The notes beneath the pieces are model-generated. The model was not told the DNA's origin, ran no database searches, and saw only the letters and a list, made by a program, of their open reading frames with translations. The translations under genes and the position numbers were made by a program. Of a stretch of DNA of 64,000 nucleotides, positions 12,513 through 62,515 are shown in pieces. Numbering within the stretch: the stretch's first letter is position 1; every line of letters starts with the position of its first letter. Source of the DNA: Ostreococcus lucimarinus (Eukaryota); assembly GCA_000092065.1 (NCBI GenBank), contig CP000591.1; one strand, 5' to 3'.

Positions 12513-13106
12513 GTGGGGGTCGACATCGCGTCGGCGCCCGTCGGCGGCACGACGACGCGCGCGATGCGACGCGCGCTCGCGGCGGCGACGCGCGACGCGA
12601 CGCGACGCGGTGCCGACGCGACGCGCGCGCGACGCGCGTCGGCGTCGCGAGCGCGCGACGGTGAAGGATTTTGGCGCCGCGCGGACGACGACGGCGGATT
12701 CCACGACGCGATGCCGCGCGCGCCGACGTGGTCGACGGCCGCGCTCGCGGGCGACGAGCGCGAGCGCGAGGACGACGACGCGCGCGACGACGAACTGGGA
12801 CGCGCGGCGGCGCTGGCGGTGACGGGAATGGGTGAGGGACGCGCGAGGGAGGCGTTCGCGAGGGACGTCGCGGGCGCGCTGCGGTTCGCGCGGGCGCTGG
12901 AGCGCGTGCGCGCGGACGGCGTGGAGAGAATGTGGACGACGGCGCACGGGGATGGGTTGAGGATGCGGTTCGACGGCGTCGCGCGGGTCGACGGGGAGGC
13001 GGGAGAGCGGGAGGCGGCGGCGGCGCCGCGCGAGCGGTTGTTGCGCGAGGCGAAGTACGCGCGAGGCGAATATTACGTCGCGCCGAGGAGTCGCGCGGTG
13101 GAGTAG
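12513..13106 (+). CDS. Hypothetical protein (possible small gene divergent from POLE); could be compositional artefact
   Basis: 197-aa ORF in the 0.9-kb spacer between POLE start and MFS stop; C-terminal part non-repetitive (RMWTTAHGDGLRMRFDG...YYVAPRSRAVE). Confidence 0.25.
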   Translation: MGVDIASAPVGGTTTRAMRRALAAATRDATRRGADATRARRASASRARDGEGFWRRADDDGGFHDAMPRAPTWSTAALAGDEREREDDDARDDELGRAAALAVTGMGEGRAREAFARDVAGALRFARALERVRADGVERMWTTAHGDGLRMRFDGVARVDGEAGEREAAAAPRERLLREAKYARGEYYVAPRSRAVE

Positions 13107-14673: not shown

Positions 14674-14728
<55 letters not shown>

Positions 14729-40581: not shown

Positions 40582-40627
40582 CGCGCGCGCGCCGCGCGGC
40601 GCCGTGCCGCTGTGCCGCGCGCGACGG

Positions 40628-40905
40628 CCGACCGACCGACCGACCGACCGACCGACTGGTGTACAAACAGTGACACGCGAAATAACCATCGCCGCGACGC
40701 CACTGATGGGAATCTTCACGTATCGAAGAGCCGACCGACCGACTGGTGTACAAACAGTGACACGCGAAATACCCATCGCCGCGACGCCACTGATGGGAAT
40801 CTTCACGTATCGAAGAGCCGACCGACCGACTGGTGTACAAACAGTGACACGCGAAATAACCATCGCCGCGACGCCACTGATGGGAATCTTCACGTAATGA
40901 AGAGC
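40628..40905. repeat. 87-bp tandem repeat, about 2.8 copies, in kinesin/AsnRS divergent promoter
   Basis: Units start at 40657, 40744, 40831 (period 87), 1-2 mismatches per unit; each unit ends in (ccga)n. Confidence 0.9.
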
Positions 40906-40945
40906 CGCCGCCGGCACACCCCGACGCCGCGCGCGCGCGAGCGCC

Positions 40946-43460: not shown

Positions 43461-46400
43461 TTATTGCAGTCTGAGGTCGGTGAAATCATCGGCGACGACG
43501 TCGACGGATGGAGCGGCGGAAGCGCTCGTGTGATGAATCACTGGGAGTGGTGCTGACGTCGCGAACGACGGGGCGAGGAGGGCGGGGTCGATGGTGGGCG
43601 GGCGAGGGATTGCGCCGGCGGGCGGCGGATGCGACGATTCGGATGCCGAGGCTTCGTAACCGTAAAATCCATCTTGCGAGGCGGTTCGTTCGTGTGCGGC
43701 GTACGACGCCGACGATTGACTCTCGCTGGATTCATTCCGGGAGTGCGCGGAATGGGCCGGCGCGACGGCGGACGGCATGAAGAATTGCGCAGGAGCTTGC
43801 GCGCACGCGCCGGCGTTAGGCGCGACGGGGACGAAGCCTTGAGGGGCGACAGTCGGCGTCGAAGTCGTGCTGAACGTCGACACATAACGCGTGTGTACGC
43901 CACCTTGCTGTTTTGCGTGCGTGCTTGGCGCCATGACTGGAGGCGGACCTGCAATTTCACTCGCCGCGCTTTGTTCTGATCGAAGCGGCGGAGCACCCAC
44001 GGGTGGGGCCTCTTTCGGTGGTGCTCGTCCTCTCTCGAGCCACATCTTGCGCTCGTCGTCGTAATAGAAGACATTCTCTTGGCTCATTGTCGGCTCGTTC
44101 GCGGGCTGAGGCTTTGGCGCAACGCCGCCGAAGAGGGACGACATCGATCGTAACAAGTTGCCCGAGGGCGTGCGCTCGTGGCGCGCCACGTGCGCCGGCG
44201 GCGGTTGCACGACCGGTGCAGCTTGTGAGTGCGCCGACGAAAGTGTGTGGTGCATTTGCACGGGCTGCTGCTGATACGCATCCGGTGGCGTGTGCGGTCG
44301 CGGCTCGTGCGGTGGACCCAGCGGCGAGGCTTGAAATTCACCGCCGTCGCCGAATAGGGAGCTGACGCTTCGATCGAGCAAGCCTTTGACGCCGCTCACC
44401 AACACCTTGGCAGCGCCAGCTGCGGCGTCAGCTAATCTGCCAGTTTTTCCGCGTAAACTATTGTGTAACCGATCTTCCATCTGCGCCGCCAACATTCCCA
44501 CGAGGGCGCCGTTCACTTCGGGAGAATTTCTATCCAGAGAACGAACGCTCTTCAACACAGACTCTACGTACGCCAGCGCTGGTTTCAATTTACCAACCTC
44601 AGCTAAAGCTCCGGCGTATAAGAGCTTGTAAGGCAACAGAGATGGAAGTTGCGCTTGTGGATTCGAACCTAACACCGCGAGTTCGAAAATCTCGGTGAGG
44701 TGCACGGCACGAGGCGTGACGTACGTCCTCGGGAACTTGCGATGATCCGCGCCGATGAGACACAACCGCGAATTGAATGAATACGGCGTCGGACGTTGCT
44801 TTGACAGTGCGTAGGCAACATGCGCGGCCGTGATGTCATTCTGACACCAGAGCTCGTCGCCGAGCGCTTTGAGCACGAAATCACTCCCTTTTGCTGGGTT
44901 TGAACAAAGAATAGCGATGTGCTCGCGCCATCTCGGGAGAAGTTCTCGAATTTGGGAAACTTCCGGCACTTGCATCCCGTGCACGTTCGGTGCAGCCTCG
45001 ACACCGCTTGTCGTGAGCTCTTGGGGTATCCCAGCCATGACTACTTCGAGCGTGTGGAGCGGCGAACCGACTCGGCACACGCTCTTTGCCATGATGGAGA
45101 CCGTTTCGTGATAGTGACGACCGCCCATGTGGCTGGCGAGAAGAAGCGCGTGTGGCCATAATTTCGCCGCTACAGCGGCCTGCAGCGCCTCACCGCGCCG
45201 ACCGGCGATGAGGAGATTCTCTATTTGCACGATTTGTTGCGCGTCGCCTTCGCCCGACGGATTCAGCGGCGACGCCGCGACGTTTGCCGACACCCAACCA
45301 CCGTCCGAGGCTGCCTGAGCGTCACCGGCGAGCACGGATGCAAGCTCGGCGACAGCGCCTTTTCTATTTTCGCCTAACAAATCACCAGGGGTTGAAATCT
45401 CACCCTTATGTCGTAACATCGTCTGTAACACGCGATATAATGTCACTTCGCTCTGTTGCCGTTCTCCCCCGGACGAGAGCGCCGAGTCCATCATCTTTGT
45501 CACGTCGGCTTGTCGTCGATTTCCCAACGGCCCGTCGAACGCCTCCATCGATCGTACGTAAGACATACCGAGTGTGTTACCATCCTTTAACATGGATCCA
45601 ACCGAATGCACGCGCAAGCTACAAGGTGGTATGCTCGTTCCGTGACTGATTCTACCGCCAGGATACCCAGGCCCGCTCAGTATGAGCGAGCCGCCAAAAC
45701 CGAAACTCATCGCCACGTGCTGCGGGCGGCCGTGCGGAGAACGATCAGTGTCGTCATAATTTGCGGGTTTGAGCGTCTCTGTTTCACTATATGCTGCATA
45801 CTCGAGCTGTTGCGTGGAGTGCGCCTCGTAAGACGGCGCATAGCCGCCATGATTCGCGCTCGGCGCAGGCACAGGCGGATACTCTGGCTGTGCCACGCGA
45901 GCGGGCTCGTACGTGTCGTAGCCCGCGCTCGCGCGAGGTGGTGGCGTAAATGGTACGGGCGACGCTGAAGCCAATGCATGCGGCACGGCATGCACGTACG
46001 CCATCGGGGAGTCTTCAATCGGCGTCGGCACCATGAACGTCGGCTTCGGCGGCGTCTGCGGCGGCGCCTGCATATCGGAGACGGAATTCGACGAGGACAC
46101 ACGGCTGTGCAAATTCTCGGAAGAATACGCCGGCACTATCGGTGGTGCGCTCAGGTCCGCGGTGACGTCGTTTTCTCGATAGTCTGCGTACGCTGATCTA
46201 GGCGGCTCTCGCAGTTCAAGCGCGCGATTCGGCTGGTCTTCGTGCGAAGCGCTCGCGAGCGGTTGGGAAAATCCCTGTCGCGCGTACTGTTCCGGAGCAT
46301 GTTGCTCGTACGCAGTGGCGTGAGCGTGTGACGTCATCCCCATCCCGAAGTCATCGCTCGTTTCGCGCTCGCCGACGAACTCTGCTTGCGGATACTCAGC

Positions 46401-47201
46401 CGCCGGCGCGTGCGTTTCCTCGTAAAACGCACGATCCGGCGCCGAATCCGTCGGCGCGAAGCTCGTCGCCTCGATAACTGGCGCGCGCGCCTCGGCCGCG
46501 ACGCTCGCGATCTCGTTCGCCTCCGCCACGTTCTCGCTCGCCGCGTACGTTTCGCGCGCCGGCGCCTCCGCCGCCCCGCTCGCCCGCGCCTCGAACGGAA
46601 TCACCGCCGGCGCGCTCACCGTCTCCTCCGCCGCGTCTAAATCGTCAAAGAATCCCATCCCATCGTCCCGCGACGCCGCGGGCGACGCGAACGGCGCGTT
46701 CGTCGCGTACGTCGCCGCCGCCGTCGCCGTCGCCGCCGCGCGAACCGCCCCCGCCGACGCCTCCGCCCCCGCCGACGCCGACGCCGACGCGCCGACCTCC
46801 CCCCCCCCCCCCGTCGGCGTCAACCAATCGTCGTCGCCCTCGCACCCCCCGAACAGCGCCCCCAAGTCGCCGTTCGCGACTTCCACGAACCCCGTCGGCG
46901 CGTCCTCGCGCGCGCGCGGCGTCGTCGGCGTCGTCGCGAACGCCGCCTCCTCCCGTCGCGTCGGCGTCGTCGCGCGCTCGCCCATCGTCGGCGTCGCGAC
47001 GCCGAACGGTCCGCGCGTCGTCGTCGTCGTCGCGTCGTCGCGCGCCGCGCCGTCGTCGCGCCGCGCGTCGTCGCCGCACGTCGTCGTCGCGACCGCGCGC
47101 TCGCCCGTCGTCGTCGCCTCGCGCGACGCCTCCGCGTCCGCGCGGCGCGGCGCCGGCGCGACGTCGTCGAGCCACGCGTCGTCGCTGTCCGACGACGCCA
47201 T
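43461..47201 (-). CDS. SEC16: COPII assembly scaffold Sec16 homolog; N-terminal Ser/Arg-rich extension in ORF track (to 47795) rejected
   Basis: Central conserved domain WPHALLLASHMGGRHYHETVSIMAKSV...; long Pro/Ser/Ala-rich disordered flanks; start placed at MASSDSDDAW (47201). Confidence 0.8.
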   Translation of the reverse strand: MASSDSDDAWLDDVAPAPRRADAEASREATTTGERAVATTTCGDDARRDDGAARDDATTTTTRGPFGVATPTMGERATTPTRREEAAFATTPTTPRAREDAPTGFVEVANGDLGALFGGCEGDDDWLTPTGGGGEVGASASASAGAEASAGAVRAAATATAAATYATNAPFASPAASRDDGMGFFDDLDAAEETVSAPAVIPFEARASGAAEAPARETYAASENVAEANEIASVAAEARAPVIEATSFAPTDSAPDRAFYEETHAPAAEYPQAEFVGERETSDDFGMGMTSHAHATAYEQHAPEQYARQGFSQPLASASHEDQPNRALELREPPRSAYADYRENDVTADLSAPPIVPAYSSENLHSRVSSSNSVSDMQAPPQTPPKPTFMVPTPIEDSPMAYVHAVPHALASASPVPFTPPPRASAGYDTYEPARVAQPEYPPVPAPSANHGGYAPSYEAHSTQQLEYAAYSETETLKPANYDDTDRSPHGRPQHVAMSFGFGGSLILSGPGYPGGRISHGTSIPPCSLRVHSVGSMLKDGNTLGMSYVRSMEAFDGPLGNRRQADVTKMMDSALSSGGERQQSEVTLYRVLQTMLRHKGEISTPGDLLGENRKGAVAELASVLAGDAQAASDGGWVSANVAASPLNPSGEGDAQQIVQIENLLIAGRRGEALQAAVAAKLWPHALLLASHMGGRHYHETVSIMAKSVCRVGSPLHTLEVVMAGIPQELTTSGVEAAPNVHGMQVPEVSQIRELLPRWREHIAILCSNPAKGSDFVLKALGDELWCQNDITAAHVAYALSKQRPTPYSFNSRLCLIGADHRKFPRTYVTPRAVHLTEIFELAVLGSNPQAQLPSLLPYKLLYAGALAEVGKLKPALAYVESVLKSVRSLDRNSPEVNGALVGMLAAQMEDRLHNSLRGKTGRLADAAAGAAKVLVSGVKGLLDRSVSSLFGDGGEFQASPLGPPHEPRPHTPPDAYQQQPVQMHHTLSSAHSQAAPVVQPPPAHVARHERTPSGNLLRSMSSLFGGVAPKPQPANEPTMSQENVFYYDDERKMWLERGRAPPKEAPPVGAPPLRSEQSAASEIAGPPPVMAPSTHAKQQGGVHTRYVSTFSTTSTPTVAPQGFVPVAPNAGACAQAPAQFFMPSAVAPAHSAHSRNESSESQSSASYAAHERTASQDGFYGYEASASESSHPPPAGAIPRPPTIDPALLAPSFATSAPLPVIHHTSASAAPSVDVVADDFTDLRLQ

Positions 47202-48699: not shown

Positions 48700-49719
48700 T
48701 CACTTTGACCAGTGCTTCTTATCGATCTCATCGCGCGTGTTGTCGCGGAGTAAAAATAATCTCGCAGCCCGCTCGCGCAATGTGCCTCCGCACTTTAATT
48801 TTTGCGCGGTGAGTTCAGCTTTCAGGCGCTCTAAACCGACCGCCTCGAGCGCCTCCGCGCTATCAAATCGCGTCAAATCTAATGGCCCTTCTTCCTTCTG
48901 CTCCATCACAGGCGGCGCCATCGTCGGCGCCAACGTCGGTGACTGCGAAGTGGACGCCTCCGGCTCGTTCGCGCGCGCGAGCGCGGGCGCGGGCGCCGCC
49001 GGAACGACTCTCGCCTTCTTCGCCGCCGGAAACAACAACGCAGAATCATCGAAATCTTCGTCACTCTCACTCTCACTCTCACTCTCGTCATCGTTCCCCA
49101 CCACCGCTTTTCCCTTTTTCGCCTTCTTGCGTTTCGCCGCTTCGATGGCCGCCGCATTCTTAAACCCACTCGCCACCGCGTCGTTCACGCTCTCGCTCAC
49201 CTTTGCGCTCTCCGCGTGATACGCCTCTCGCTCCTTCTCCTCTAACTCCCTCAGTCTCGCCGCTCCGCTTCCTCCGGCTTGCGATTTCAAGTATTTCTCC
49301 GCCTTCGCCTCGGCATCTCGCTCCGCTTTCTCCGCCTCCCACGCCGCGATCTTCTTCTCTCCGTTCACCGCCCGCAAGCGCCGACCGCTCAGGTCGCGAC
49401 AGGCGTCGAAATTCGTCGTCTGCGTCCCTCGTCGCGCCGACGCGCGCAGCTGCGTGCCGAAGCCGCCCTTGCCGCCGAGTAAGCCACACGTGACGTGCGC
49501 GATCAAGGCATCGCTCGCGCGAACCGTCGCGTCGCCGCGCGCGCGCGCGGAACGCGAAAATGCGACGCGCGCGCCGTAGGGCACGAGCGCGGCGTCGCGC
49601 GCGCGCAGGGCGTCGACGACGCGCGCGAGGTCGCGCGAGCGGTCGCGATCGTCGAGATCGCACTCGACGCATCGCGTGCGGCCGTCCAGGGCGCGCACGA
49701 GAACGTTGACGCGAGGCAT
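48700..49719 (-). CDS. SDE2: SDE2-like replication-stress/telomere maintenance protein (UBL with GG|KGG processing motif, C-terminal SAP)
   Basis: [14 protein letters not shown]...[23 protein letters not shown] match to SDE2 core; C-terminal SAP-like [40 protein letters not shown]. Confidence 0.75.
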
Positions 49720-49867: not shown

Positions 49868-50908
49868 TCAGAGCGAGTACTCGCCGCGTCTTCCCGCGCG
49901 CACGCGATGGAAAAACGCTCGGATGTGGAGCGAACTCTCGGCCAAGACGCTGAGGAGGAAGAAGAACAAACCGTAGACGAAAAATCCAGCGAAAGGCTTG
50001 TCTTTGGGGAATAGGATGAAGGATGAGATCACCGTCAGGGCTTTGCGGACGGTGGTGACGGCGGTGGCGGAGGTGGCGCCGAAGTGCCTGGTGAGCGTCG
50101 AGAAGAAGTAGGCGCCGAAATAAAACGTCACCGAGCGAGCGAAGAGCAGGACGAACGCGCCCTTGACCGTGCGAAGGTACGTGATCGACCCCGAGCCTTC
50201 GAATATGACGACAAATAAGAACGCGAACACGGTACCGATGGCGTTCGTGTACAGGATATTTTCTCGCACGCCCGCTCCGTAGTTCCGCATCGCGTGCTCG
50301 GACACGTTCGTCTGCAGCGATCCCAAAAAGATCGCCACCACGGACAACCCGAATCCCAGAGCCAACTTCACGTCTTCCGACAACCCCAAAACCGCTTCCC
50401 CGTCGTTCGTCGTCGCCGTCGCCGGCGTGGGCATCGTCGCCTCGTTCGATCCCAACTCGCGCTCGGCGATTCCGAAGAACGCCACGGCGACGACGAGCAG
50501 CGACGCCGCCACCACCTGATGCGGCTTGTACGTCCGCCGCAACCAAACCGCGCTGATCGCCATCGTAAACACTAATTTAGACGATCGCAACACCGTCCCC
50601 GTGGCGTAATTAATCCATTTATAACACAGCTTCCCCACCGCGCTGTACGCCGCCAACAGCAACGCCTGCAGCGCGTACAGCTCTAAAGGCGCCTTCCGCT
50701 TCGCAAACAGCGTCCCGTCCGCGATCGAACTCGCGGACGATATCAGCGCGAACACCATCAACTCCGCCAGCGCCACCGTCCAGTAATAGTCAAAATTCGG
50801 CAGCGACTTGTACACGTATTCCTCAAAGTAGCACGACGCGCCGATGAAGACAATCGCGCACGTCCCCGCCACCGCGAACGCCGCGTTTTCCGACATCTCC
50901 GCCCCCAT
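49868..50908 (-). CDS. Nucleotide-sugar/PAPS transporter-like (SLC35/UAA family); Arg-rich ORF-track extension to 51778 rejected
   Basis: Start MGAEMSENAAF (50908); about 10 TM helices, UAA-type topology. Confidence 0.75.
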   Translation of the reverse strand: MGAEMSENAAFAVAGTCAIVFIGASCYFEEYVYKSLPNFDYYWTVALAELMVFALISSASSIADGTLFAKRKAPLELYALQALLLAAYSAVGKLCYKWINYATGTVLRSSKLVFTMAISAVWLRRTYKPHQVVAASLLVVAVAFFGIAERELGSNEATMPTPATATTNDGEAVLGLSEDVKLALGFGLSVVAIFLGSLQTNVSEHAMRNYGAGVRENILYTNAIGTVFAFLFVVIFEGSGSITYLRTVKGAFVLLFARSVTFYFGAYFFSTLTRHFGATSATAVTTVRKALTVISSFILFPKDKPFAGFFVYGLFFFLLSVLAESSLHIRAFFHRVRAGRRGEYSL

Positions 50909-51247
50909 GAGCGCGCCTCCGTACGCGCGTCCGCCGTCCGCGGCGCGCTCGACGCCCGGCGCGTCCCAGTCCGCCGTCGCCGTCGCGGGCGCGTCCCTCC
51001 GAACACCATCGTGGCCCGTCTGCGATCGCGCGAAACCGCGGCGCGCGTCAGTCGGCGAACGCGCTCGCGGTTCGCGCGATCGGCGCGTTTTCGCGCGTTT
51101 TCGCGCGCGTCCTCGCGCGCGCGCACCCCGAGCAGCAGCGTCTCGCGCTCGCTGCGGTCGCTCGACGACATCGCGCGACGCGCGCGACACAGAGTGACGC
51201 CGCGCGCGCGGCGTCGAGATCCGCTCGGCGCGGCGACGACGGCGTCG

Positions 51248-51491
51248 ATGACGTCCGCGTCGATGGTATCGACGCTCGCGGCGCGCGCGAGAGCGAACGT
51301 CGCGCTCGCGGTCGTCGCGATCGCGATCGCACTCGCGTTGTTCCCGCTGCTCGCGCCGCTCGCGCTGGGCGGTTTCGTCGTCGCGCGCGCGGTGCGCAGG
51401 GACGCGCGCGAGGAAGAGGACGTTTCGGTGAAGCCCGTCGCGGGGACGGGCGGGGACGTCGCGGTGCGAGAGAGGGCGCGGGTGGAGGTTG

Positions 51492-51551
<60 letters not shown>

Positions 51552-54133
51552 CGGTGGCGCTCACGGGCTCGGCGGCGATGCTGGCGAAGATGCGGAAGAG
51601 CAGCGCGTTGACTGGAGAAAAACGCGCGACCGCGGCGCAGGGTGCGAGCACGAGCGCGAAGGATGGTGTGGATGAGACGGCGACGAACGCGAAAGCGACC
51701 CGAACGTTTATATTGCACGGCGGCGAAGCGGCGTCGCAAATCGCGAAGGATTTGGCCGCGCAGGCGGAGAAAGAGCACGGAATTGCGTTGAATGTGATGA
51801 CAATGGATGATTTCAGAGACGTAGAGTTCGATAAAGAACCCTGCGCGGTGGTTTTCGTGGTCGAGACGGTAGAGAACGCGCAGCCGGCGGAAGCTGCGGG
51901 ATCTTGCGTGCGCTTCTTCAATCGGAAACGTAAGGAAGGGACGAATCAGGCTATGCTGGCGGGGAAGATGTCATACGCGGTTTTAGGACTCGGTGATACA
52001 AACTTGTTACTCGATCGCCAGACGACGACGGCGAAAGATTGTAACCAGGCTGCGCAGACGTTGGATTCGGCGCTCGCCGCTCTCGGCGGCGCTCGAATCG
52101 TCCCCCGCGGCGAGGCAAACGACGCCGTGGGTTTGGACGAAGACGTTGTACCGTGGGCCAAGTTGCTTTTCCCAAAATTGTCTGAAGTTCACAAAGGGAT
52201 TGAGGCGAAAAAAAACGCAAAGCTATGCTTCTTGTACGGCTCGCAGACCGGTAACGCGACGGAAATTTGCAAAAATCTCGCCGCCGAGGCGAGCGAGAAG
52301 GGGTACCCCGTGGAGGTGTGCGCGATGAATGAGGTCGAGCCAGAAGATGTCATCAAACCTGGCGCTGTGATTACGTTCGTCGTATCCAGCACCGGCGACG
52401 GTGACGCTCCGGATAACTGCGACACATTCTTCACTCGCCTCAAGCGCAAGGCAAAGAAGGAAAAAGGCGAGGGCGCCATCGGCGTCCAGTACGCCGTCCT
52501 AGGACTGGGTGATCAAAACTACAGCGCGTTCATGGCTGTGCCGCGTCAGTTCTCGCAAACGATGGAGAACTTGGGCGCGAAGTGTTTCGCTAAGCGCGGT
52601 GAATGCGACGACACACTTGGTTTGTACGAACAAGTTGACGCATGGACGAGCACGTTTTGGTCTCATCTCGAAGTCGCTCGAGGAAACTCACACAAGTTGC
52701 GCGAGGGTGAGACAATCGTGGAAGACGCTAATGCCGCCACTGAAGCTCCAAAAGGCGATTCGAAGCCACCGCAAGCGGCTGCGCCGGCGAAGAAAGTCGA
52801 AGGCGTGCCACCACTACCAATCTGCCGATCTGAAGTGCAGTGGCTGCCGAAAACGACAGAAGTGGTTGCTAATCGCGTCGCGCCCGGTCCAGATTCCGAA
52901 GGTGCATACACCGTCTCCTCGCCGTACATGGCGACTATTCACAAGCGTGAGGTACTCACAAACTTGAAATCCGATCGGCGAGTGTTGCACATGGAGTTTG
53001 ATCTCGGATCAAGTGGGATCTCTTACAAGCCGGGAGATTCCATTGGCATCGTACCGCAGAACGACGCCGAGCTGGTTCGAGCCATCGTCGATCGGCTGGG
53101 TCTCGATCAAGCCGCCATTTTCACGCTGAATTGGAAGAAAGGTGACACGAATGAACACGCGACTCATCCGTTGCCGCATATTCACACCCCGTGCACGGTA
53201 AAGAGTGTGTTCACGAATTATATCGACATCACGGGATGTCCGCGTAAGTCGCTCCTTCGCGTTCTCGCCGAACACTGCGGCAACGCGGAGGAAAAAGACG
53301 CCCTCTTGCACCTTTCATCGCGTGGTGGTCGAGCAGAATACGAAACACAGATTCGCGCGCAGTCACCGACGCTATTGACGCTCTTGAACAATTATCCGAG
53401 TTGTTGTCCTCCGTTAGCCGAGCTTTTAGATGCCCTCTCTCCGCTCGCGCCGAGACTGTATTCGATCACATGCGCGCCCGAGGTGGCACCAACAACGCCG
53501 TCGGTTGCCTTCAGTGTCGTGCGGTTCCAGGTACCCAGCGGTGAACATCGCCTCGGCGTCGCCACGAACTGGCTCGACGAGATATCGGTCGACGACAAGT
53601 GCGAGCACAAAGTCCCGGTGTACATCAAGCCAAGCTTGAAGTTCGGCCTGCCCGAAGACTCGAGCGCGCCGCTAGTGATGATTGGTCCGGGTACCGGCGT
53701 CGCACCATTCCGCGGTTTCCTCCAGTCCAGACGCGCTAAAGCACAAAAAGGCGGTCGATTATCTGAAGCTATGTTGTTCTTCGGCTGTCGCAAGGCAGAT
53801 GAGGACTTCCTGTACGAAGCCGACTGGAAGAGTTTCACCGCCGATGGCTCGCTGACAAAGCTCGTCTGCGCCTTTAGCCGCGAGACCGCAGAAAAGGTAT
53901 ACGTGCAGCACAAAATTGAAGAGCACGCCACCGAAGTCGCGCGCTTAATCTCTGAGGGCGCTTACGTCATGGTATGCGGCGACGGCGCGCACATGGCCAA
54001 GGATGTCCACGCCGCCCTCGTCCGCGTCGTCGCTCAAGCCGGCGTCTGCGGCGTCTCTGACGTCAAAGCCGCCGAGGCTCTCCTCGCCGACTTCACTAAA
54101 TCCGGTCGTTACGTCCGTGATATTTGGAGCTAA
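51248..54133 (+). CDS. NADPH-dependent diflavin oxidoreductase (CPR/MTRR/NDOR1 family) with N-terminal membrane anchor, poly-Thr linker and two tandem flavodoxin-like domains
   Basis: TM anchor NVALAVVAIAIALALFPLLAPLALGGFVV; degenerate flavodoxin-like domain 1; canonical FMN motifs CFLYGSQTGNAT, VVSSTGDGDAPDN, YAVLGLGDQNY; FAD RLYSITCAP; NADPH GPGTGVAPFRGF, YVMVCGDGAHMAKDV; C-terminal W. Confidence 0.85.
51502..51550. repeat. (ACG)n coding microsatellite giving 16-residue poly-Thr linker
   Basis: Seen directly; in frame within diflavin reductase. Confidence 0.9.
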
Positions 54134-54354
54134 CGCACGCGCGTTCGTATTGTTTAGATTTTAATTTCTCATTTCATTTCATTTCATTCCACTCCACTCT
54201 CGTTCCGTTTCACCAAACTCCTGCGGGCGAGTTGGGTGTTACGCGTACACGCGCGCCCCTCAGACCCGCGCGCGCTTCGCCGCGGGCTAAAATGCGCCGT
54301 CGTGATCGAGGAAACGACCCTCCGATGGTGTCGTCGACGTTCGTCGTCGTCCTC
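52619..54354. repeat. Segmental direct repeat, copy 1 (1736 bp; 3' 1.5 kb of diflavin reductase + 3' spacer + first 28 codons of GH1 signal peptide)
   Basis: Matches 59064-60799 at constant offset 6445 except 2 substitutions (52717 c/t; 53709 t/g); divergence begins exactly at 54355 vs 60800. Confidence 0.95.
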
Positions 54355-54522
54355 GTAGCAAGCAAGTTTAGAGCTTGCTAACTTTTGACTGTAGAGGAAC
54401 ACGCCAAGTTCGTCGATGGACTTACGAAGCTGGGCAAAGGCAACTGGCGTGGGATCATTCAACACTTCGTTCAGTCTCGAACGCCGACGCAGGTCTAATC
54501 ACACGCGATAGATCGGTCGAAC

Positions 54523-55386
54523 TTAAGTCTGGGGCATTTCAATCTCTCGGTCCAAAGCTTCCGCGCCCAACGCCGAATATCTACATCGTGAGCGTCGTGC
54601 ACGTGTTGAAACTGCCCACACTGACACCATGGTAGTCGCCAACAAGCCCAGCGTTACGTAGACAAGTGTCAAACAACTGAAGTAACTGTTTTGAGGCGAA
54701 CGCTCTGAGGCGAAACATAGAGCGCCGTGCAAATCTTCATCAGGTTCGAGCGTGATGTTACGTTGAAGAACGAATACGTATCGCTTGAAGGGCATTGATG
54801 CGCCACCTGAAGCTGTGATATGAAATTCCACCGTCTCAATCGAAGCAGATTTCTCAGGTGCGCACCAAATTAAGTTGTGGACGGTGGCTTTGCGCGTCGT
54901 GTACATGCGTCGACCAGAGCAGGCGGTGGCCGGCCTGTTCACGTTCCCATTCAAAAGCACGCCTTGATCGTGAAAGGATCCCGCAGAAGCGGTGATCAGC
55001 ATCATCGAATTCGGGTCTTCGTGCGATGCCGCGAGACCCAAGCGGCAGCCATCGCAATATTCTCGTTTACCGGGAGGGAACGTCCACGCAGCGGGGATCT
55101 GCCTCGTGGGTTCATTTTCGTCGTACTGCGCATCCTCAACATCAGTGTGGTTTGCCCAACTCAGCAGCACACTCGTGTTTGTGGCATCTATCGGTGCTCC
55201 GTGACCAGCAGCACGACGTGTGGGGTGTACGCGAGCCATCCCACCTTCGCAACGCGCGTCGAGGCGCAGTTCGGTCGGATACGACTCCACCAAAACCAGT
55301 CGCCAATCGAAGATTGCCACGGCGACGGCGGCGCATAGGCGCGCCGGATGCCGCAGACACATGTCGCCGCGTCGACATCGGTTCAT
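54523..55386 (-). CDS. Lineage-specific type-I membrane glycoprotein (signal peptide, about 210-aa ectodomain with 3 N-glycosylation sequons, C-terminal TM, short basic tail)
   Basis: Signal peptide MCLRHPARLCAAVAVAIF, sequons NTS/NHT/NIT, TM CLTLVYVTLGLLATTMVSVWAV; lower-GC codon usage. Confidence 0.5.
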   Translation of the reverse strand: MNRCRRGDMCLRHPARLCAAVAVAIFDWRLVLVESYPTELRLDARCEGGMARVHPTRRAAGHGAPIDATNTSVLLSWANHTDVEDAQYDENEPTRQIPAAWTFPPGKREYCDGCRLGLAASHEDPNSMMLITASAGSFHDQGVLLNGNVNRPATACSGRRMYTTRKATVHNLIWCAPEKSASIETVEFHITASGGASMPFKRYVFVLQRNITLEPDEDLHGALCFASERSPQNSYFSCLTLVYVTLGLLATTMVSVWAVSTRARRSRCRYSALGAEALDREIEMPQT

Positions 55387-55455
55387 AGGGTTGTAGCGCC
55401 CGTCCTGGTCCTAGCCCGTCATGTAGCGTTGACGCGCGTGTTCTGCCCCACCCAA

Positions 55456-55490
55456 GTCGTCTGTCGTCTGTCGTCTGTCGTCTGTTGTCG
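55456..55490. repeat. (GTCGTCT)n microsatellite in shared promoter of the island gene pair
   Basis: gtcgtctgtcgtctgtcgtctgtcgtctgttgtcg seen directly. Confidence 0.85.
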
Positions 55491-55938
55491 GGGGGTGTCC
55501 GTTCGCGACGGACAACATACCAGCAAAGCTATGACTCAAAGGCTTTGTTCGGTCACGCGCGCGCACGCTCGCACGACTGAGCGCCGTCGACTCCTGATTC
55601 CACACGTTCAGCGTCGTCGGAATCATACGGGAAACCCGGCAGAGAAGCGCGGGGAAGTACGCATCGCGTTCGCGCGACACTGTCCGACGTAAAACGCGTA
55701 TAATGAGACATTTTCCAATCAAGTTTTGTAAGAAGGTTGAAATATACTTAGTAAATAATTATGCGAGGCCCAATAGTTCTTTTAAATTATCTAATACGAC
55801 GTGCGACCGACCAAATCCGACTAATGCACGCGGCAAGTATGGAGGAGATATTTACATGGAGGATTATCCACTAGATATTTTTTGGATATTTACTCCGCAT
55901 CGAACGAGTTACGACTCAACAATAGAGGGACCGTTGCG

Positions 55939-55973
55939 CGTGGCCGGCACGTGCCGGCCACGCGCCGCCACGT
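55939..55973. promoter_or_regulatory. Perfect 22-bp palindrome gtggccggcac|gtgccggccac centred on CACGTG, plus second CACGTG 15 bp downstream; about 80 bp upstream of island gene B start
   Basis: Reverse complement identity verified by eye; CACGTG at 55947-55952 and 55968-55973. Confidence 0.55.
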
Positions 55974-56042
55974 GCGCGAGGTCCCTACGCCCGTCTCTCC
56001 GCAAGCATCACACGACGACGCGAGGAATTCTACGCGAAGAAG

Positions 56043-57713
56043 ATGCAAATCGAACGAAGGAAACGAAATGCGCGAGCGCTCTGCGCACTTGTTGTTTCTG
56101 CGACGCTTGCGAACACCGCGAGCGCGCAATTAACATACATCGCAGGATACGAGCCACGCTCCAACGTCGTCCAACATTCCCAAGTCGACTTGGACATAAG
56201 GGATATCATTAGTTCTTTCCCGAAGTGGAAGGGTGGAGACAGCATTTACAATGGCGGACTTCTGAACGACTGCACCACAGTGGCAGGCGCGTGCAACTGG
56301 AATGGGACCAGTAGTCTATACCCAACATTGTGGGACGGCACTTGTACGCACACCTGCCCTGCTGCTGACTCGGCAAATCCGGGCCAAAAGTGCACTTTAA
56401 GCGCGGCGGATGCATGTTTGTCCACTTACGGTATTTATAAGTATGGTAAGGGATCGTTCAAGGGGAACAACAAGGATGACGCGGCGTCGATGCGGACGCT
56501 TCGCGGGTTTGCAACGAAACTTGGTGATAAGGGTGCCTCAGCGCGTGTTGCCGCGAAAAACAACCCGTTTATCAACAAAATGAATAAATACTGGGCGAAA
56601 CAGGGGCTGAATGAATTGACTTGGGGTCAAGATATCATCGAAGCTGCTTTCAAAGGTACTTGTGTCAAGAACGGTAACTCGTGTGTAAAATCAGGGGGAG
56701 TAAATCTTCTCGATTTTGGCACGGTCGGAAACGACTTCAGGGTGGAAGTGATAAAGAAAGGTATTATTTACTTGAACATCTTTCCTTACGTCATTTGGGA
56801 ATTTCAAGACGCTATCAACGACTGCCATGGTGGTGACTTGGGCGCGAACGATGAAATTCCCGGAGGAGGTTCAGTACACGCTTGGGATGAAGCCGTAGCC
56901 TTTTACACTGGTTCGCTCGAGGGCATCTTAAAAGGCGGTAACAATGGCCTCGCCTCATGCGATGACGGTAATTGTGAGTTGCAATTTCAACTGTCAGATT
57001 ATCGCTGCACGAACTTCGGTACCTGCACCGCCGATGCTGATGGTGACCCGTGGAGTGGATACTCAAAAAATAATGAAGAGATCTTCAAACTCTTTCAACA
57101 AGGTGAAGGTGAAATTACTGAAGCCGCTGCAAGCTCCAATACTGCGGCGACGAAATGTGACTTGCCGGATCGCACCCACGAAAAGGCTGTTACGAAAATG
57201 CTTGTTCCTTTCGTGCAAGGATGCATGAGGTACTTGTGGAAGACAAAAGATTCGCAGAAAGCTAAGGAAGCAGGCGAGCTCTTTGCGTTTGCATCCGCTG
57301 CACTTCCTTTTATCGATGCGGTAGACCCTGTCGCCGCTACTAAGTTGTTCACACGTGCGTGGAAACTAGATTTCACTACTTACACGTATGAAGAAACTAA
57401 GCAGGGCATCGAAGGCACCCTTTCGAGACTCGGTGCTGGTGAGGGCATTGGTACAATATCTTGCGCTGACATTGGCGACCTCGTTGACAGCAGTGATCAA
57501 CTGCTCGCTGCTGGCTGCACGGATCCCTCATCTCCCTCATCTTCCAATAATGACACCACTCTCGGGCTGGGTATTGGGATTCCACTGGGTGCCATCGCAA
57601 TCACCGCGTTGGTATTTGTCGTGCTTTTGTGGCGAAAGAGCTCAGCAAACAGCAAGCGAGTCGAAGAGTTAACCATGCAGCTGAGAGGTCCTGGTAAGGA
57701 CTTCTATCCGTGA
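56043..57713 (+). CDS. Lineage-specific Cys/Gly-rich type-I membrane glycoprotein (signal peptide, about 500-aa ectodomain, Ser/Pro stalk, TM, short tail)
   Basis: Signal peptide ...CALVVSATLANTASAQ, more than 25 Cys in ectodomain, stalk PSSPSSSNNDTT, TM IPLGAIAITALVFVVLLW; lower-GC codon usage; 27-bp duplication at 3' end. Confidence 0.6.
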   Translation: MQIERRKRNARALCALVVSATLANTASAQLTYIAGYEPRSNVVQHSQVDLDIRDIISSFPKWKGGDSIYNGGLLNDCTTVAGACNWNGTSSLYPTLWDGTCTHTCPAADSANPGQKCTLSAADACLSTYGIYKYGKGSFKGNNKDDAASMRTLRGFATKLGDKGASARVAAKNNPFINKMNKYWAKQGLNELTWGQDIIEAAFKGTCVKNGNSCVKSGGVNLLDFGTVGNDFRVEVIKKGIIYLNIFPYVIWEFQDAINDCHGGDLGANDEIPGGGSVHAWDEAVAFYTGSLEGILKGGNNGLASCDDGNCELQFQLSDYRCTNFGTCTADADGDPWSGYSKNNEEIFKLFQQGEGEITEAAASSNTAATKCDLPDRTHEKAVTKMLVPFVQGCMRYLWKTKDSQKAKEAGELFAFASAALPFIDAVDPVAATKLFTRAWKLDFTTYTYEETKQGIEGTLSRLGAGEGIGTISCADIGDLVDSSDQLLAAGCTDPSSPSSSNNDTTLGLGIGIPLGAIAITALVFVVLLWRKSSANSKRVEELTMQLRGPGKDFYP

Positions 57714-58890
57714 GAGGTCCTGGTAAGGACTTGAGTCTTCTCTATGAGGTGCTGCTCCGATAGGCTACTACATTGAGCCCAGCACATTGAGCCCAAGAGC
57801 GAAGAGCTCGTTTAATTTAATGCACATACTACTTGAAATACCGTCTCACCATTTGCCGCCGTTTGCCGCCGCCGCGTTGATCGAGCATGACTTGGACGTG
57901 TTACCGAACGAAACGTAACGAGCCAGGTGGCGTTCGTAGGGTATTGAAATGCAGAAATTTGTATCCGTGAGTCGCAGCTAACTTTGAGCGCGACACGACG
58001 CGAGGTGCGCGCGAAGGCAAAAAGTTACATATTTTACCGTTTTTTTTCGAAATCACGTGTAGTGCATTATGGTACCACCTAAAACATGGTGGCTAATACA
58101 CACAGCACCACACTATAGATAAACACGACATATAATATGTACAGAACTACATTGAGCGGCTTGCCAAGCGTGGCCCACAGAAAGTTCTGGTTCGAGTCGC
58201 GCGTTTGTTGCGCGCAGCAGCTTTCCTTGCACTGCGAGCTCGAGTTTTCGCACGCTGGCTCAGTACTCTCTGTTCGTAAGGCGCGCGTGAAGGCTCTAAT
58301 CGAACGGAACTCCAGACGCGCGGCGTGTGGCATCGTTCGTCGCGCGCCGTAGGGCCACACACGTGCACTCCTCGCAGCAGAGACTACGCGTCTCCGCTCA
58401 CGTTCAGAGAACGAAGGGCGTGCGACGCAGTCTCGTCGGCACTGGAGCATTCTGAGGGCGCGCGCGAGGGTGACACTTGCTTACGCTGATGTTCTCGGCG
58501 GAGGTCCCGCGTACAGAGCGTCGCCGCGACGGCAAGTGACATGCAGCCACTCGAAGTCGTGCGACGAGCGGCGACGACGCGGTTGTAACGCACACGCGCC
58601 GGCCCCGGGCACGAGACGAAACCGAAAAGACGGTTCGTAGAAAAACGCGCGTGTTTGGCACGCGCCCGGTGAAACGTGAGCGAAAAACCGAAAAGTATAC
58701 CTATAGGGTGTAGCGCTTCGATGTATGATGCAAATGGAATTACGGTACTTTATACGAATGCCCCTAACGACGAGACGATACCGATTGGGTAAAGTTCTGG
58801 CGACCCGCCGCTACGCCCAACACAAATTGGTCCCACAGATGCATTCCCCAAAGTGAGGGACTGGAATCAAAGGCGGGCAAGAAAACCGCC

Positions 58891-59063
58891 GCATGGCTCG
58901 CACCCCGTGCACTGCCAGCGTCGCCCGAGGCCACGCTCCGCGTGAAAGTCGGCGCATCGCGTGCGAGCGCTGCCGCATAACTCACACCCCGTGTGCCGCC
59001 ATTATCGTCGCCTGAGGCCACGCCCCGCGAGAAAGTCGGCGGATCGCGTGCGAGTGCCGTCGC
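58891..59063. repeat. Two tandem degenerate about 85-bp repeats abutting the island/copy-2 junction
   Basis: caccccgtgcactgccagcgtcgcccgaggccacgctccgcgtgaaagtcggcgcatcgcgtgcgagcgctgccgc vs caccccgtgtgccgccattatcgtcgcctgaggccacgccccgcgagaaagtcggcggatcgcgtgcgagtgccgtcgc; second ends exactly at 59063. Confidence 0.7.
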
Positions 59064-60799
59064 GGTTTGTACGAACAAGTTGACGCATGGACGAGCACGT
59101 TTTGGTCTCATCTCGAAGTCGCTCGAGGAAACTCACACAAGTTGCGCGAGGGTGAGACAATTGTGGAAGACGCTAATGCCGCCACTGAAGCTCCAAAAGG
59201 CGATTCGAAGCCACCGCAAGCGGCTGCGCCGGCGAAGAAAGTCGAAGGCGTGCCACCACTACCAATCTGCCGATCTGAAGTGCAGTGGCTGCCGAAAACG
59301 ACAGAAGTGGTTGCTAATCGCGTCGCGCCCGGTCCAGATTCCGAAGGTGCATACACCGTCTCCTCGCCGTACATGGCGACTATTCACAAGCGTGAGGTAC
59401 TCACAAACTTGAAATCCGATCGGCGAGTGTTGCACATGGAGTTTGATCTCGGATCAAGTGGGATCTCTTACAAGCCGGGAGATTCCATTGGCATCGTACC
59501 GCAGAACGACGCCGAGCTGGTTCGAGCCATCGTCGATCGGCTGGGTCTCGATCAAGCCGCCATTTTCACGCTGAATTGGAAGAAAGGTGACACGAATGAA
59601 CACGCGACTCATCCGTTGCCGCATATTCACACCCCGTGCACGGTAAAGAGTGTGTTCACGAATTATATCGACATCACGGGATGTCCGCGTAAGTCGCTCC
59701 TTCGCGTTCTCGCCGAACACTGCGGCAACGCGGAGGAAAAAGACGCCCTCTTGCACCTTTCATCGCGTGGTGGTCGAGCAGAATACGAAACACAGATTCG
59801 CGCGCAGTCACCGACGCTATTGACGCTCTTGAACAATTATCCGAGTTGTTGTCCTCCGTTAGCCGAGCTTTTAGATGCCCTCTCTCCGCTCGCGCCGAGA
59901 CTGTATTCGATCACATGCGCGCCCGAGGTGGCACCAACAACGCCGTCGGTTGCCTTCAGTGTCGTGCGGTTCCAGGTACCCAGCGGTGAACATCGCCTCG
60001 GCGTCGCCACGAACTGGCTCGACGAGATATCGGTCGACGACAAGTGCGAGCACAAAGTCCCGGTGTACATCAAGCCAAGCTTGAAGTTCGGCCTGCCCGA
60101 AGACTCGAGCGCGCCGCTAGTGATGATTGGTCCGGGTACCGGCGTCGCACCATGCCGCGGTTTCCTCCAGTCCAGACGCGCTAAAGCACAAAAAGGCGGT
60201 CGATTATCTGAAGCTATGTTGTTCTTCGGCTGTCGCAAGGCAGATGAGGACTTCCTGTACGAAGCCGACTGGAAGAGTTTCACCGCCGATGGCTCGCTGA
60301 CAAAGCTCGTCTGCGCCTTTAGCCGCGAGACCGCAGAAAAGGTATACGTGCAGCACAAAATTGAAGAGCACGCCACCGAAGTCGCGCGCTTAATCTCTGA
60401 GGGCGCTTACGTCATGGTATGCGGCGACGGCGCGCACATGGCCAAGGATGTCCACGCCGCCCTCGTCCGCGTCGTCGCTCAAGCCGGCGTCTGCGGCGTC
60501 TCTGACGTCAAAGCCGCCGAGGCTCTCCTCGCCGACTTCACTAAATCCGGTCGTTACGTCCGTGATATTTGGAGCTAACGCACGCGCGTTCGTATTGTTT
60601 AGATTTTAATTTCTCATTTCATTTCATTTCATTCCACTCCACTCTCGTTCCGTTTCACCAAACTCCTGCGGGCGAGTTGGGTGTTACGCGTACACGCGCG
60701 CCCCTCAGACCCGCGCGCGCTTCGCCGCGGGCTAAAATGCGCCGTCGTGATCGAGGAAACGACCCTCCGATGGTGTCGTCGACGTTCGTCGTCGTCCTC
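59064..60799. repeat. Segmental direct repeat, copy 2 (identical to 52619-54354 apart from 2 substitutions)
   Basis: See copy 1. Confidence 0.95.
59067..60578 (+). pseudogene. 5'-truncated duplicate of diflavin reductase (FAD/NADPH ferredoxin-reductase-like module only); no in-frame ATG at 5' end, upstream in-frame stop at 59013-59015, F->C change in conserved APFRGF motif
   Basis: ORF-track start is non-ATG (ttg); lacks both flavodoxin domains; substitution at 60154 alters GPGTGVAPFRGF to GPGTGVAPCRGF. Confidence 0.6.
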
Positions 60800-62515
60800 G
60801 TCGGCGTCGTCGCCCGCGCGAGCGCGCAGACCCACGCGCACCAACACCATCGAGGCGAAACGAGCCACGGCGACGGAAACTTTGTCACCTTCCCACCGTC
60901 GTTCGCGTTCGGCGTCGGAACGTCGGCGTGGCAGATCGAAGGAAACGGTGGTGATCGCCCGCGATCGGTGTGGGACGCGTTCGTGAGCGAACTAGGAGAG
61001 GAGAAGAGAGTGGAGGCGGAGCGCGGGATCGGCTTTCACGAGCGATACGCGGCGGATGCGCAAATGATGGCGGATGCGGGAGTGAAACATTTCAAAATGT
61101 CCCTGAGCTGGCCGAGGTTGATGCGCGCCGACGGGAGCGCGATCGATGAAGGGTTCGAGTATTATCAGAACGTTTTCGGGGCGCTACGCGAGCGAGGCGT
61201 GGAACCGCACGTGACGCTGTTTCACTGGGACACGCCGATGTGGTGCTGCGCCAACGAAACGATCGCGAGCGGGCGTGGGAGCGTGTGCGAAGGAGCTTGG
61301 GTGAAGGATGAAATCTTGAAAGATTTTGAGAAGTACGCGGATGCGGTGTTTAGTAGACTCGGGAAGGGGATAAAATATTGGACCACAATTAGTGAGCCAA
61401 AAACCGTCGCAGAGATGGGCTACGGTGCGGGCCTTCACGCGCCTGGGCGTCGGAGCGTGGAAGAACAACTTAAAGTGGGGCATAATATGTTGCGTGCACA
61501 CGCTTTGGCGGTGGCGCTCTATAGGGAGAAATATTCCCAGTTTGGAGGGAAACTTTCAATCAATTTGAATAGCGCTTGGGTCGAGCCGGCGTCGGATTCG
61601 CCGGACGACGTGCGTGCGGCGGCAAACGCGATGGATGAAGAGCTTGGATGGTTTGCCGATCCTATTTATAAAGGTGACTATCCGGCGAGCATGCGGGCGA
61701 GATTGGGGAGCTTTCTTCCGGAGTTCACCGAGGAGGAGCGCGTGCTCGTGAAAGGGAGCGTCGATTACTTTGCGCTCAATCACTACACGTCCTACTTCGC
61801 CAAGCATGTGACCGACGCGCAAGCTTCGTCGCAGCTTGGTTTGAGCGGCAGACCTCAGCCGTGGGAGATCACACTAGAGTCAGAAAAGAGCAAGAAACCA
61901 ATCGGCAAGGAGGCGCAAAGCGACTGGTTGCACATCGTGCCGTGGGGATTAGAAAAGGTTTTGCTGCACATCAAGGACAGATACGACGATCCAGCGATCA
62001 TGATCTCGGAGAATGGCGTCGATATCGCCGAGAGGGGCGATATCGCGGAAACTCTGGACGACACAACGAGAGTCAAGTTTATCGATGCCTATCTCGGAGC
62101 CGCTCGCGAGGCGATGCGTAAAGGCGCAAACGTTGTGGGGTACTTTTATTGGTCGATGTTCGACAACGTCGAGTGGGTGGATGGGCGATCGAAACGATTT
62201 GGTTTGGTTTATGTCGATTACGACGGCAAGTACGGCGAAAAGATGAAGCGCTATCCAAAGAAATCTCTCGAGCACTTCTCCTCCTACATGCGAGGAGAGC
62301 ACGCCGAAGAACCAACCCTCGGTGCCGCGCGCGTGCGACACTCGCTCGAAGACTCTTTCGTTCAAGTCGATCCGAGGCGTCAGGGCGAAATCTTCGCATT
62401 GCAAGGCATGGCGTTGACCATCGCCTGCGTCTACGCCGCGGCAGCGGCGTTCGCCGGCGGCGTCAAAATCGTCGAGCAAGACGTCGAGCAAGACGAACGC
62501 TCGTCCCTCGTCTGA
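60737..62515 (+). CDS. Glycoside hydrolase family 1 beta-glucosidase, secreted (signal peptide); alternative start at 60770
   Basis: Signal peptide MVSSTFVVVLVGVVARASAQ; GH1 motifs FGVGTSAWQIEG, HWDTP, acid/base TISEP, nucleophile ISENG, YFYWSMFDNVEW. Confidence 0.85.
   Translation: MRRRDRGNDPPMVSSTFVVVLVGVVARASAQTHAHQHHRGETSHGDGNFVTFPPSFAFGVGTSAWQIEGNGGDRPRSVWDAFVSELGEEKRVEAERGIGFHERYAADAQMMADAGVKHFKMSLSWPRLMRADGSAIDEGFEYYQNVFGALRERGVEPHVTLFHWDTPMWCCANETIASGRGSVCEGAWVKDEILKDFEKYADAVFSRLGKGIKYWTTISEPKTVAEMGYGAGLHAPGRRSVEEQLKVGHNMLRAHALAVALYREKYSQFGGKLSINLNSAWVEPASDSPDDVRAAANAMDEELGWFADPIYKGDYPASMRARLGSFLPEFTEEERVLVKGSVDYFALNHYTSYFAKHVTDAQASSQLGLSGRPQPWEITLESEKSKKPIGKEAQSDWLHIVPWGLEKVLLHIKDRYDDPAIMISENGVDIAERGDIAETLDDTTRVKFIDAYLGAAREAMRKGANVVGYFYWSMFDNVEWVDGRSKRFGLVYVDYDGKYGEKMKRYPKKSLEHFSSYMRGEHAEEPTLGAARVRHSLEDSFVQVDPRRQGEIFALQGMALTIACVYAAAAAFAGGVKIVEQDVEQDERSSLV

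Follow-up and report, generated by a model that had tools for sequence, protein, structure and literature searches.

Layout of the gene and its product

The stretch of DNA considered here, 64,000 nucleotides of Ostreococcus lucimarinus (assembly GCA_000092065.1, contig CP000591.1) and called the window below, carries at positions 51248-54133 an intron-free open reading frame (ORF) encoding a diflavin reductase, a member of the superfamily that includes CPR (microsomal P450/cytochrome b5 reductase), MSR (methionine synthase reductase, MTRR), SiR-FP, and NOS reductase. Its first ATG lies at 51248, in a frame open from 51011, and its stop codon at 54131-54133, giving a product of 961 amino acids (aa). 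An initial annotation of this DNA had placed the gene accurately and had described a diflavin reductase with a membrane anchor and a poly-Thr linker, in which a duplicated, degenerate flavodoxin-like domain precedes a canonical one. The anchor, the linker, and the two flavodoxin-like domains are borne out by the Pfam domains, by one hydrophobic segment, and by a Thr run of exactly 16 residues. The features of the gene, with the two flavodoxin-fold domains named D1 and D2, are as follows.

51248-54133, + strand: intron-free ORF of an anchored diflavin reductase, probably of the MTRR clade; 961 codons plus stop, collinear with more than 50 homologs
51287-51391, + strand: predicted hydrophobic membrane anchor, aa ~14-48, with a central P-x3-P (FPLLAP); hydropathy, AF2 helix, and conserved position
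51392-51553, + strand: linker A, disordered and non-conserved, aa 49-102; pLDDT 26-47, mean pairwise identity 0.12
51503-51550, + strand: perfect (ACG)16 microsatellite encoding the Thr16 run, aa 86-101; direct sequence count
51554-51613, + strand: conserved basic helix motif VALTGSAAMLAKMRKSSALT, aa 103-122; mean pairwise identity 0.67, LTGSA invariant
51698-52183, + strand: D1, flavodoxin-fold domain without FMN-binding motifs, aa 151-312; Pfam Flavodoxin_1, 48.5 bits
51992-52045, + strand: D1 signature loop GDTNLLLDRQTTTAKDCN, aa 249-266, in place of the FMN-stacking 90s loop; conservation across D1 domains
52220-52669, + strand: D2, canonical FMN-binding domain, aa 325-474, with YGSQTGN, SSTGDGDAPDN, and LGLGDQNY; Pfam Flavodoxin_1, 96.3 bits
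52670-52906, + strand: long hinge from the FMN domain to the connecting/FAD domain, aa 475-553, with a conserved GVPPLPICR; mean pairwise identity 0.24
52907-53572, + strand: FAD-binding and connecting domain, aa 554-775; PF00667, 170 bits, R736-x-Y738-S739 invariant
53573-54130, + strand: NADPH-binding domain with C-terminal RDIWS, aa 776-961; PF00175, 55 bits

The protein is thus ordered as anchor, disordered linker, basic helix, D1, D2, long hinge, and FAD/NADPH module, an arrangement that departs from textbook CPR, MSR, and NDOR1 proteins, as had been noted. Pfam annotation had been proposed as a check, with a single flavodoxin domain as the outcome that would count against the description; scanning of the whole protein gave Flavodoxin_1 in two stretches, FAD_binding_1 at aa 557-775 (170 bits), and NAD_binding_1 at aa 811-921 (55 bits). 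When the segments were scanned alone, both D1 and D2 scored above the Flavodoxin_1 cut-off of 25 bits. The full-length AF2 model has a pLDDT of 81.7, dropping to 43-61 over about aa 491-520 in the hinge, with aa 501-514 below 50. Both the FMN domain and the FAD/NADPH domains that define diflavin reductases are present. Across 48 sequences, D2 shows no variation at S332, G335, S381-G385, G421, D422, N424, and Y425, nor does the NADPH domain at GPGTGVAPFRGF, G813-P-G815, C910-G-D912, W960, and S961. At the level of sequence, the electron path from NADPH through FAD to FMN is complete: D2, the motifs for NADPH and FAD, and the catalytic residues Ser, Cys, Asp, and Trp are all intact. The G+C content at third codon positions is 0.89 in the first 150 codons (51248-51697) and 0.65 in the remainder of the gene.

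The N-terminal hydrophobic segment reaches a Kyte-Doolittle maximum (19-residue window) of 2.86 at aa ~14-48, no other segment of the protein is strongly hydrophobic, and the AF2 model places a helix across it at aa 18-50. An uncharged segment of 28-43 aa is found at the same position in 18 of the 22 listed homologs from non-volvocine green algae and Pavlova, a segment of 18-20 aa in two others, and none in the remaining two; P-x(2-4)-P lies within it in 15 of the 22. The position of the anchor is kept across most green-algal homologs, whether or not they bear D1. The Thr run that follows it varies from 1 to 16 residues among orthologs (16 in this protein, 11 in one relative, and 2 in O. tauri), which is consistent with the Thr/Ala/Pro-rich stretch being a flexible spacer whose length drifts by microsatellite slippage. 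The linker had been described as likely O-glycosylated or flexible. A flexible spacer fits these data; O-glycosylation is unsupported, because the run is a microsatellite product of variable length and lies between the anchor and NADPH-dependent domains, which have to be cytosolic. Another (ACG)n/(CGT)n microsatellite occurs in the window at 14674-14727.

Between this linker and D1 stands a short basic helix motif with a net charge of +2 to +4, followed by an acidic D1, which resembles D2 in this respect. The consensus of the motif, LTGSAA(M/L/I)(L/M)A(K/R)M(R/K), is kept from Ostreococcus to Pavlova, retained in the homologs of Bryopsis, Chlamydomonas eustigma, and Volvox, from which D1 is absent, and present in two copies in Pyramimonas and Cymbomonas. 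Peptides that resemble it (GSGMSMLDKLRKRK and SNPLAKILAQRGL) also sit before the flavodoxin domains of other protist MTRR-like proteins.

A look-up of the protein in the public gene index gave no exact match. Its nearest relative is P0001, a metagenomic protein (95% identical; locus L003), and other orthologs include XP_022839960.1 of O. tauri, in a cluster at 76% identity, and proteins of O. mediterraneus (66%) and Bathycoccus prasinos (47%). Mamiellophyceae, Pyramimonas parkeae, Cymbomonas tetramitiformis, and the haptophyte Pavlova lutheri all show the full architecture in collinear form, and the more than 50 homologous proteins that share it include complete transcriptome ORFs of Pyramimonas and Bathycoccus. 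As deposited, P0001 starts at an internal GTG and therefore lacks the anchor. A genuine loss was considered and rejected, since DNA alignment indicates that positions 9820-10004 of L003 keep the anchor-coding DNA, shifted by a 1-nt insertion; the anchor-less form is probably a contig or gene-call error. In the comparison with L003 (51248-54130 against 10001-12691), dS is highest in D1 (0.19), lower in D2 (0.13), and falls steeply further along the gene, to 0.044 for the FAD domain and 0.008 for the NADPH domain, and the low-dS part coincides with the duplicated block described in the last section. Gene conversion or recent exchange is possible.

A flavodoxin-fold domain without FMN motifs

D1 has the flavodoxin alpha/beta fold and aligns with D2 at 32% identity (E = 9e-17), and it lacks the phosphate-binding loop and the aromatic residue that stacks on the isoalloxazine ring. 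Where D2 reads LYGSQTGN, SSTGDGDAPDN, and GDQNYSAFM, D1 reads LHGGEAAS, VETVENAQPAE, and GDTNLLLDRQ, with Leu253 in the place of the invariant stacking Tyr. The motif comparison agrees with the initial annotation in that the first domain is without FMN loops and the second is canonical. Because the phosphate loop and the stacking Tyr are lost, D1 would no longer bind FMN. In the AF2 model, its last helix (aa 296-323) continues into the first strand of D2, which suggests that the two domains form a fairly rigid unit.

The term degenerate, applied to D1 by the initial annotation, does not suit its pattern of conservation. Among 14 orthologs that span Ostreococcus to Pavlova, D1 and D2 have the same mean pairwise identity, 0.61, compared with 0.49 for the FAD domain, 0.54 for the NADPH domain, and 0.12-0.24 for the linkers, and invariant columns make up 28% of D1 and 27% of D2. 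Against L003, dN/dS is 0.09 for D1, 0.06 for D2, and 0.25-0.33 for the linkers. D1 also has near-invariant motifs of its own. Comparison of 51 prasinophyte-type D1 domains with 30 D1 domains from other contexts identified 23 positions at least 90% conserved in both groups (T207, E209, E215, R222, G249, D250, N252-T260, A262, D264, C265, N266, L279, G280, G295, and W303), and 15 of the 18 positions of the signature loop reach this level in both. All 23 belong to the loops that follow beta3, beta4, and beta5, the former isoalloxazine face. The equivalent of the phosphate loop is variable among D1-type domains (GGE, SGG, SNK, SAK, GGR, and others), and the pLDDT of the signature loop is reduced, at about 60-80, despite its extreme conservation. 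To judge from these alignments, the loops of the former flavin site were rebuilt rather than eroded, into an almost invariant surface (T-x-E...E...R; GDxNLLLDRQTTxAxDCN).

D1 had also been described as duplicated. A neighbor-joining (NJ) tree of 55 flavodoxin-fold domains groups all domains with the signature GD(T/S)NLLLDRQTTxAKDCNQ in one clade with 100% bootstrap support, irrespective of their position in the protein, and D2 domains cluster with the single FMN domains of other green algae (86-90%). Within this set, D1 of the window is 27% identical to its own D2 and 36% identical to a Cyanophora FMN domain. Since the D1-type clade is fully supported and D1 is closer to the Cyanophora domain than to its own D2, these comparisons indicate that D1 is not a local or recent copy of D2.

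The domain is not confined to such reductases. An exhaustive D1 profile search retrieved 1468 proteins at E < 1e-3, and the signature is present in 77 of the 138 best representatives newly retrieved. N-terminal copies occur in the reductases of Mamiellophyceae, Pyramimonas, Cymbomonas, and Pavlova; internal copies, with a canonical FMN domain before and the FAD module after, occur in P0071 and P0179. In P0206, P0221, P0312 (locus L001, 7481-9190), and P0313, D1 is fused to the C-terminus of an MTHFR catalytic domain, for which the Pfam score is 74-84 bits in P0206 and P0221; canonical eukaryotic MTHFR carries at this place, C-terminal to the catalytic domain, a regulatory domain that binds S-adenosylmethionine (SAM). 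The MTHFR-D1 fusions come from GC-rich marine eukaryotes. Tail-anchored D1 proteins without a reductase module (P0195, a complete MMETSP transcript ORF, P0199, and P0315) also hold another degenerate flavodoxin-like domain. P0192 and P0256 have the same make-up, with a D1-type domain beside a degenerate flavodoxin-like one, a tail-anchor helix at the C-terminus, and no FAD/NADPH module. Modules from other contexts share with D1 of the window the signature (GDSNLLLDRQTT.AKDCNQ, T.E..., GE.D), membership of the fully supported clade, and 43-50% identity, and differ in partner domains and in place in the protein. In the searchable literature, no description was found of a D1-type module, of a dual-flavodoxin or anchored MTRR, or of an MTHFR-flavodoxin fusion, nor of any Ostreococcus or Micromonas diflavin reductase. 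The sequence data thus favor reading D1 as a functional module not described before, over a duplicate in decay.

More than one flavodoxin domain is in itself common in MTRR-like proteins outside opisthokonts. Such proteins have two flavodoxin domains in Cyanophora (P0064), at least two in Mesostigma (P0069), three in Mucochytrium (P0181) and in Paulinella (P0226), four matched flavodoxin-like stretches in Leptomonas (P0242), and at least six in a metagenomic protein (P0174). Further MTRR-like reductases with two to at least six tandem flavodoxin domains are P0182, P0183, P0190, P0214, and P0220; in P0174, six near-identical canonical FMN domains are separated by Ala/Pro-rich linkers. These proteins are like the window protein in belonging to the same FAD/NADPH clade and in having more than one flavodoxin-fold domain N-terminal to the module. 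They are unlike it in that most of their extra copies keep the FMN motifs and are each other's nearest relatives, which indicates lineage-specific amplification, whereas D1 of the window belongs to a separate, old clade without FMN motifs. Since MTRR-like proteins with two to six flavodoxin domains span the eukaryotic supergroups, the textbook form with a single FMN domain may be a special case of opisthokonts and plants.

Affiliation and possible role of the reductase

Among diflavin reductases, MSR is soluble and has one FMN domain, CPR is the only membrane-anchored member, and the linker joining the FMN and connecting domains is ~80 aa in MSR compared with 10-15 aa in the others (PMC3509625). 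The window protein has features of both. An NJ tree of the FAD/NADPH module (Kimura distances, 387 columns, 200 bootstraps, SiR outgroup, NDOR1/Tah18 not included, and the controls P0074 for MTRR and P0076 for CPR verified against PDB) places it, together with its algal and protist homologs and the MTRRs of human (2qtl), Daphnia, Plectus, and Olpidium, in one clade with 76% bootstrap support, outside which the CPR clade (94%) falls. It shares with MSR (MTRR, EC 1.16.1.8) the FMN, connecting/FAD, and NADPH domains, a hinge of about 80 aa (aa 475-553), and the C-terminal RDIWS, FPSC-PP, and LxxLSSRGG motifs. The 50s loop of D2, SSTGDGD, is without the Tyr of the CPR motif T-Y-G-E-G-D, which is present in the control P0076 and in human CPR. 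In contrast to MSR, the protein adds an anchor, a Thr-rich spacer, a basic helix, and the extra flavodoxin-fold domain, and it is only about 32-33% identical to animal MTRRs. Automatic UniRef names for the homologs of O. tauri, O. mediterraneus, Cymbomonas, and Volvox are 'methionine synthase reductase'. Taken together, these data assign the protein to the MTRR clade with moderate confidence, as a member that carries an anchor. The MTHFR-D1 fusions independently support a connection with the methionine synthase node.

In the working model, which we consider probable, the protein is an anchored MTRR-clade reductase in which D2 carries the electrons and D1, without flavin, serves for docking or regulation in connection with the methionine synthase cycle. 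Electrons would pass from NADPH to FAD and on to the FMN of D2, and the acceptor would be the cobalamin of B12-dependent methionine synthase, which is thereby reductively reactivated. The N-terminal hydrophobic segment may tether the enzyme to a membrane, with its domains on the cytosolic side and the disordered Thr-rich stretch as a flexible spacer of variable length between membrane and domains. D1 would dock or regulate, through methionine synthase, a shared ligand, or a membrane partner, rather than carry electrons. This role is the most likely one because MTRR and MTHFR both serve methionine synthase and both carry D1, and the extreme conservation of the signature loop at low pLDDT, with the recurrence of D1 beside MTRR, MTHFR, and tail anchors, points to a surface that binds a partner or a ligand.

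Several observations weigh against this model. The support for the MTRR clade is moderate only, given 76% in an NJ tree built on Kimura distances from which NDOR1/Tah18 were left out. The raw PDB score of the FAD/NADPH module is higher for CPR (290 bits) than for human MTRR (229 bits), and the anchor at aa 14-48 and the extra D1 depart from the soluble, single-FMN form of MSR, the anchor being a hallmark of CPR. Neither a METH nor a CPR gene lies within the 64-kb window. Finally, the docking role follows from domain-fusion logic, with no METH-D1 fusion found, and the loss of FMN binding by D1 is deduced from motifs.

Some of these points are better suited to a protein that is a microsomal CPR on the endoplasmic reticulum, or a dual CPR and MTRR, with D1 as an accessory. 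Its N-terminal anchor, described as unique to CPR among diflavin reductases, is followed as in CPR (Arabidopsis ATR2, 5gxu; human, 9ef0) by cytosolic flavin domains with the same catalytic residues, its top raw similarity among solved structures is to plant and animal CPRs (330 bits), and JGI names homologs 'NADPH-ferrihemoprotein reductase'. However, the likeness of the anchors is by analogy only, their sequences being unrelated and the window-type segment measuring 28-43 residues with central prolines, and the protein carries D1 in addition. Human MTRR is a long branch, for which reason raw PDB bit scores were set aside as a classifier and the hinge length and the tree used in their place. 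With the protein grouping with MTRRs outside the CPR clade, a long hinge, no CPR-type Tyr in its FMN domain, and D1-MTHFR fusions that point to one-carbon and methionine metabolism, a CPR identity is quite improbable. The main rival on the role of D1, also unlikely though less so, is that of a sensor or catalytic domain that binds a ligand or cofactor (SAM or S-adenosylhomocysteine, a form of cobalamin, folate, a nucleotide, or a flavin in a non-canonical way), its site formed by the invariant polar cluster D256-R-Q-T-T...D264-C-N, and that gates electron transfer or MTHFR activity. The invariant residues are indeed polar or charged, with one invariant Cys, and lie in loops at the former cofactor pocket, whose reduced pLDDT and extreme conservation are as expected of a site that orders on binding; in the MTHFR fusions, D1 also takes the position C-terminal to the catalytic domain that the SAM domain has in the canonical enzyme. 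No ligand-binding motif was recognized, however, Pfam giving Flavodoxin_1 only, and the phosphate-loop equivalent is not conserved. A docking surface for methionine synthase or a membrane partner is the preferred reading, ahead of a small-molecule sensor.

Loss of the FMN motifs and a Flavodoxin_1 score lower than that of D2 (48.5 against 96.3 bits) are what a functionless, decaying relic of a tandem FMN-domain duplication would show. A relic is nevertheless very improbable: from Ostreococcus to Pavlova, D1 matches D2 in conservation, with a dN/dS of 0.09 and invariant motifs of its own; D1-type domains form a single clade although their gene contexts are unrelated; and the neighboring D2 is no nearer to D1 than the FMN domains of other species are. 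Equally, the architecture could be suspected of being an artefact of the gene model or the assembly, with two genes read as one ORF or a mis-assembly, the more so as a 1.7-kb near-identical duplicate 6.4 kb downstream marks the locus as rearranged or hard to assemble. Yet the ORF is continuous, the duplicated block begins at aa 458, past D1 and most of D2, and the same domain order recurs in genomes, metagenomes, and transcriptomes of many species, which makes an artefact the least credible of the explanations weighed here.

Ostreococcus, Micromonas, and Bathycoccus are prasinophytes, abundant marine primary producers whose growth depends on external B12 through methionine synthase. This dependence has been stated for the group in general, not for this genome, and algal MTRR has so far been treated as a plain three-domain enzyme (PMC11439496). 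Here the enzyme, probably of the MTRR clade, is anchored and carries a strictly conserved D1; its orthologs were already in databases under automatic names only. With D1 also fused to MTHFR in other protists, this offers a concrete, testable handle on the organization of the methyl cycle and of B12 use in phytoplankton, and is one more example of a cofactor domain that was converted to another functional surface. More tentatively, the D1-type domain could be an undescribed ancient module, derived from flavodoxin, that assembles MTRR, MTHFR, and tail-anchored adaptors into a membrane-tethered complex serving B12-dependent methionine synthase in many marine protists. If so, the anchored, D1-bearing MTRR of prasinophytes would couple cobalamin loading or METH reactivation to a membrane site, such as one where imported B12 is delivered.

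The duplicated 3' block and the neighboring genes

The 3' part of the gene is present a second time in the window, and the regions beside the gene carry the following features.

38125-40947, - strand: kinesin
40946-42637, + strand: class II aminoacyl-tRNA synthetase (D/K/N type)
43461-46700, - strand: Sec16
48700-49719, - strand: SDE2
49868-50962, - strand: UAA-family nucleotide-sugar transporter
54523-55386, - strand: 287-aa ORF without a Pfam match, in the inserted block
56043-57713: 556-aa secreted or anchored protein with a Fea1 domain (low-iron-inducible periplasmic protein), in the inserted block
59064-60801, + strand: truncated second copy of the 3' 1515 nt of the reductase gene and 223 nt of downstream flank, duplicating 52619-54356

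The segments 52619-54356 and 59064-60801 form a direct duplication of 1738 nt with 99.885% identity and two mismatches (52717 C/T and 53709 T/G). It covers codons 458-961 of the reductase, and the second copy holds a truncated ORF (59067-60578) with the FAD/NADPH part only, without anchor, D1, and D2; one mismatch changes F to C in the conserved GVAPFRGF. This copy is not part of the functional gene, and the integrity of the gene and of D1 is unaffected. In L003, a GH1 gene follows directly after the reductase, and here the region of the GH1 start codon lies inside the second copy. Because GH1 adjoins the reductase in L003, the 4.7-kb block between the copies would stem from an insertion or rearrangement confined to this genome; the inserted block (54357-59063) has a lower G+C content of 0.50-0.57. 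A TRF run did not report imperfect direct repeats of ~85 nt in this region; two such repeats (ggctcgcaccccgtgcactgcc... and aactcacaccccgtgtgccgcc..., 58896-59063) were spotted by eye and abut the start of the second copy.

No gene of B12 or methionine metabolism was found among the neighbors listed above. No kinesin was seen in L003, and the genes for the tRNA synthetase, Sec16, an RRM protein, the UAA transporter, and SDE2 stand there in the same order as in the window.

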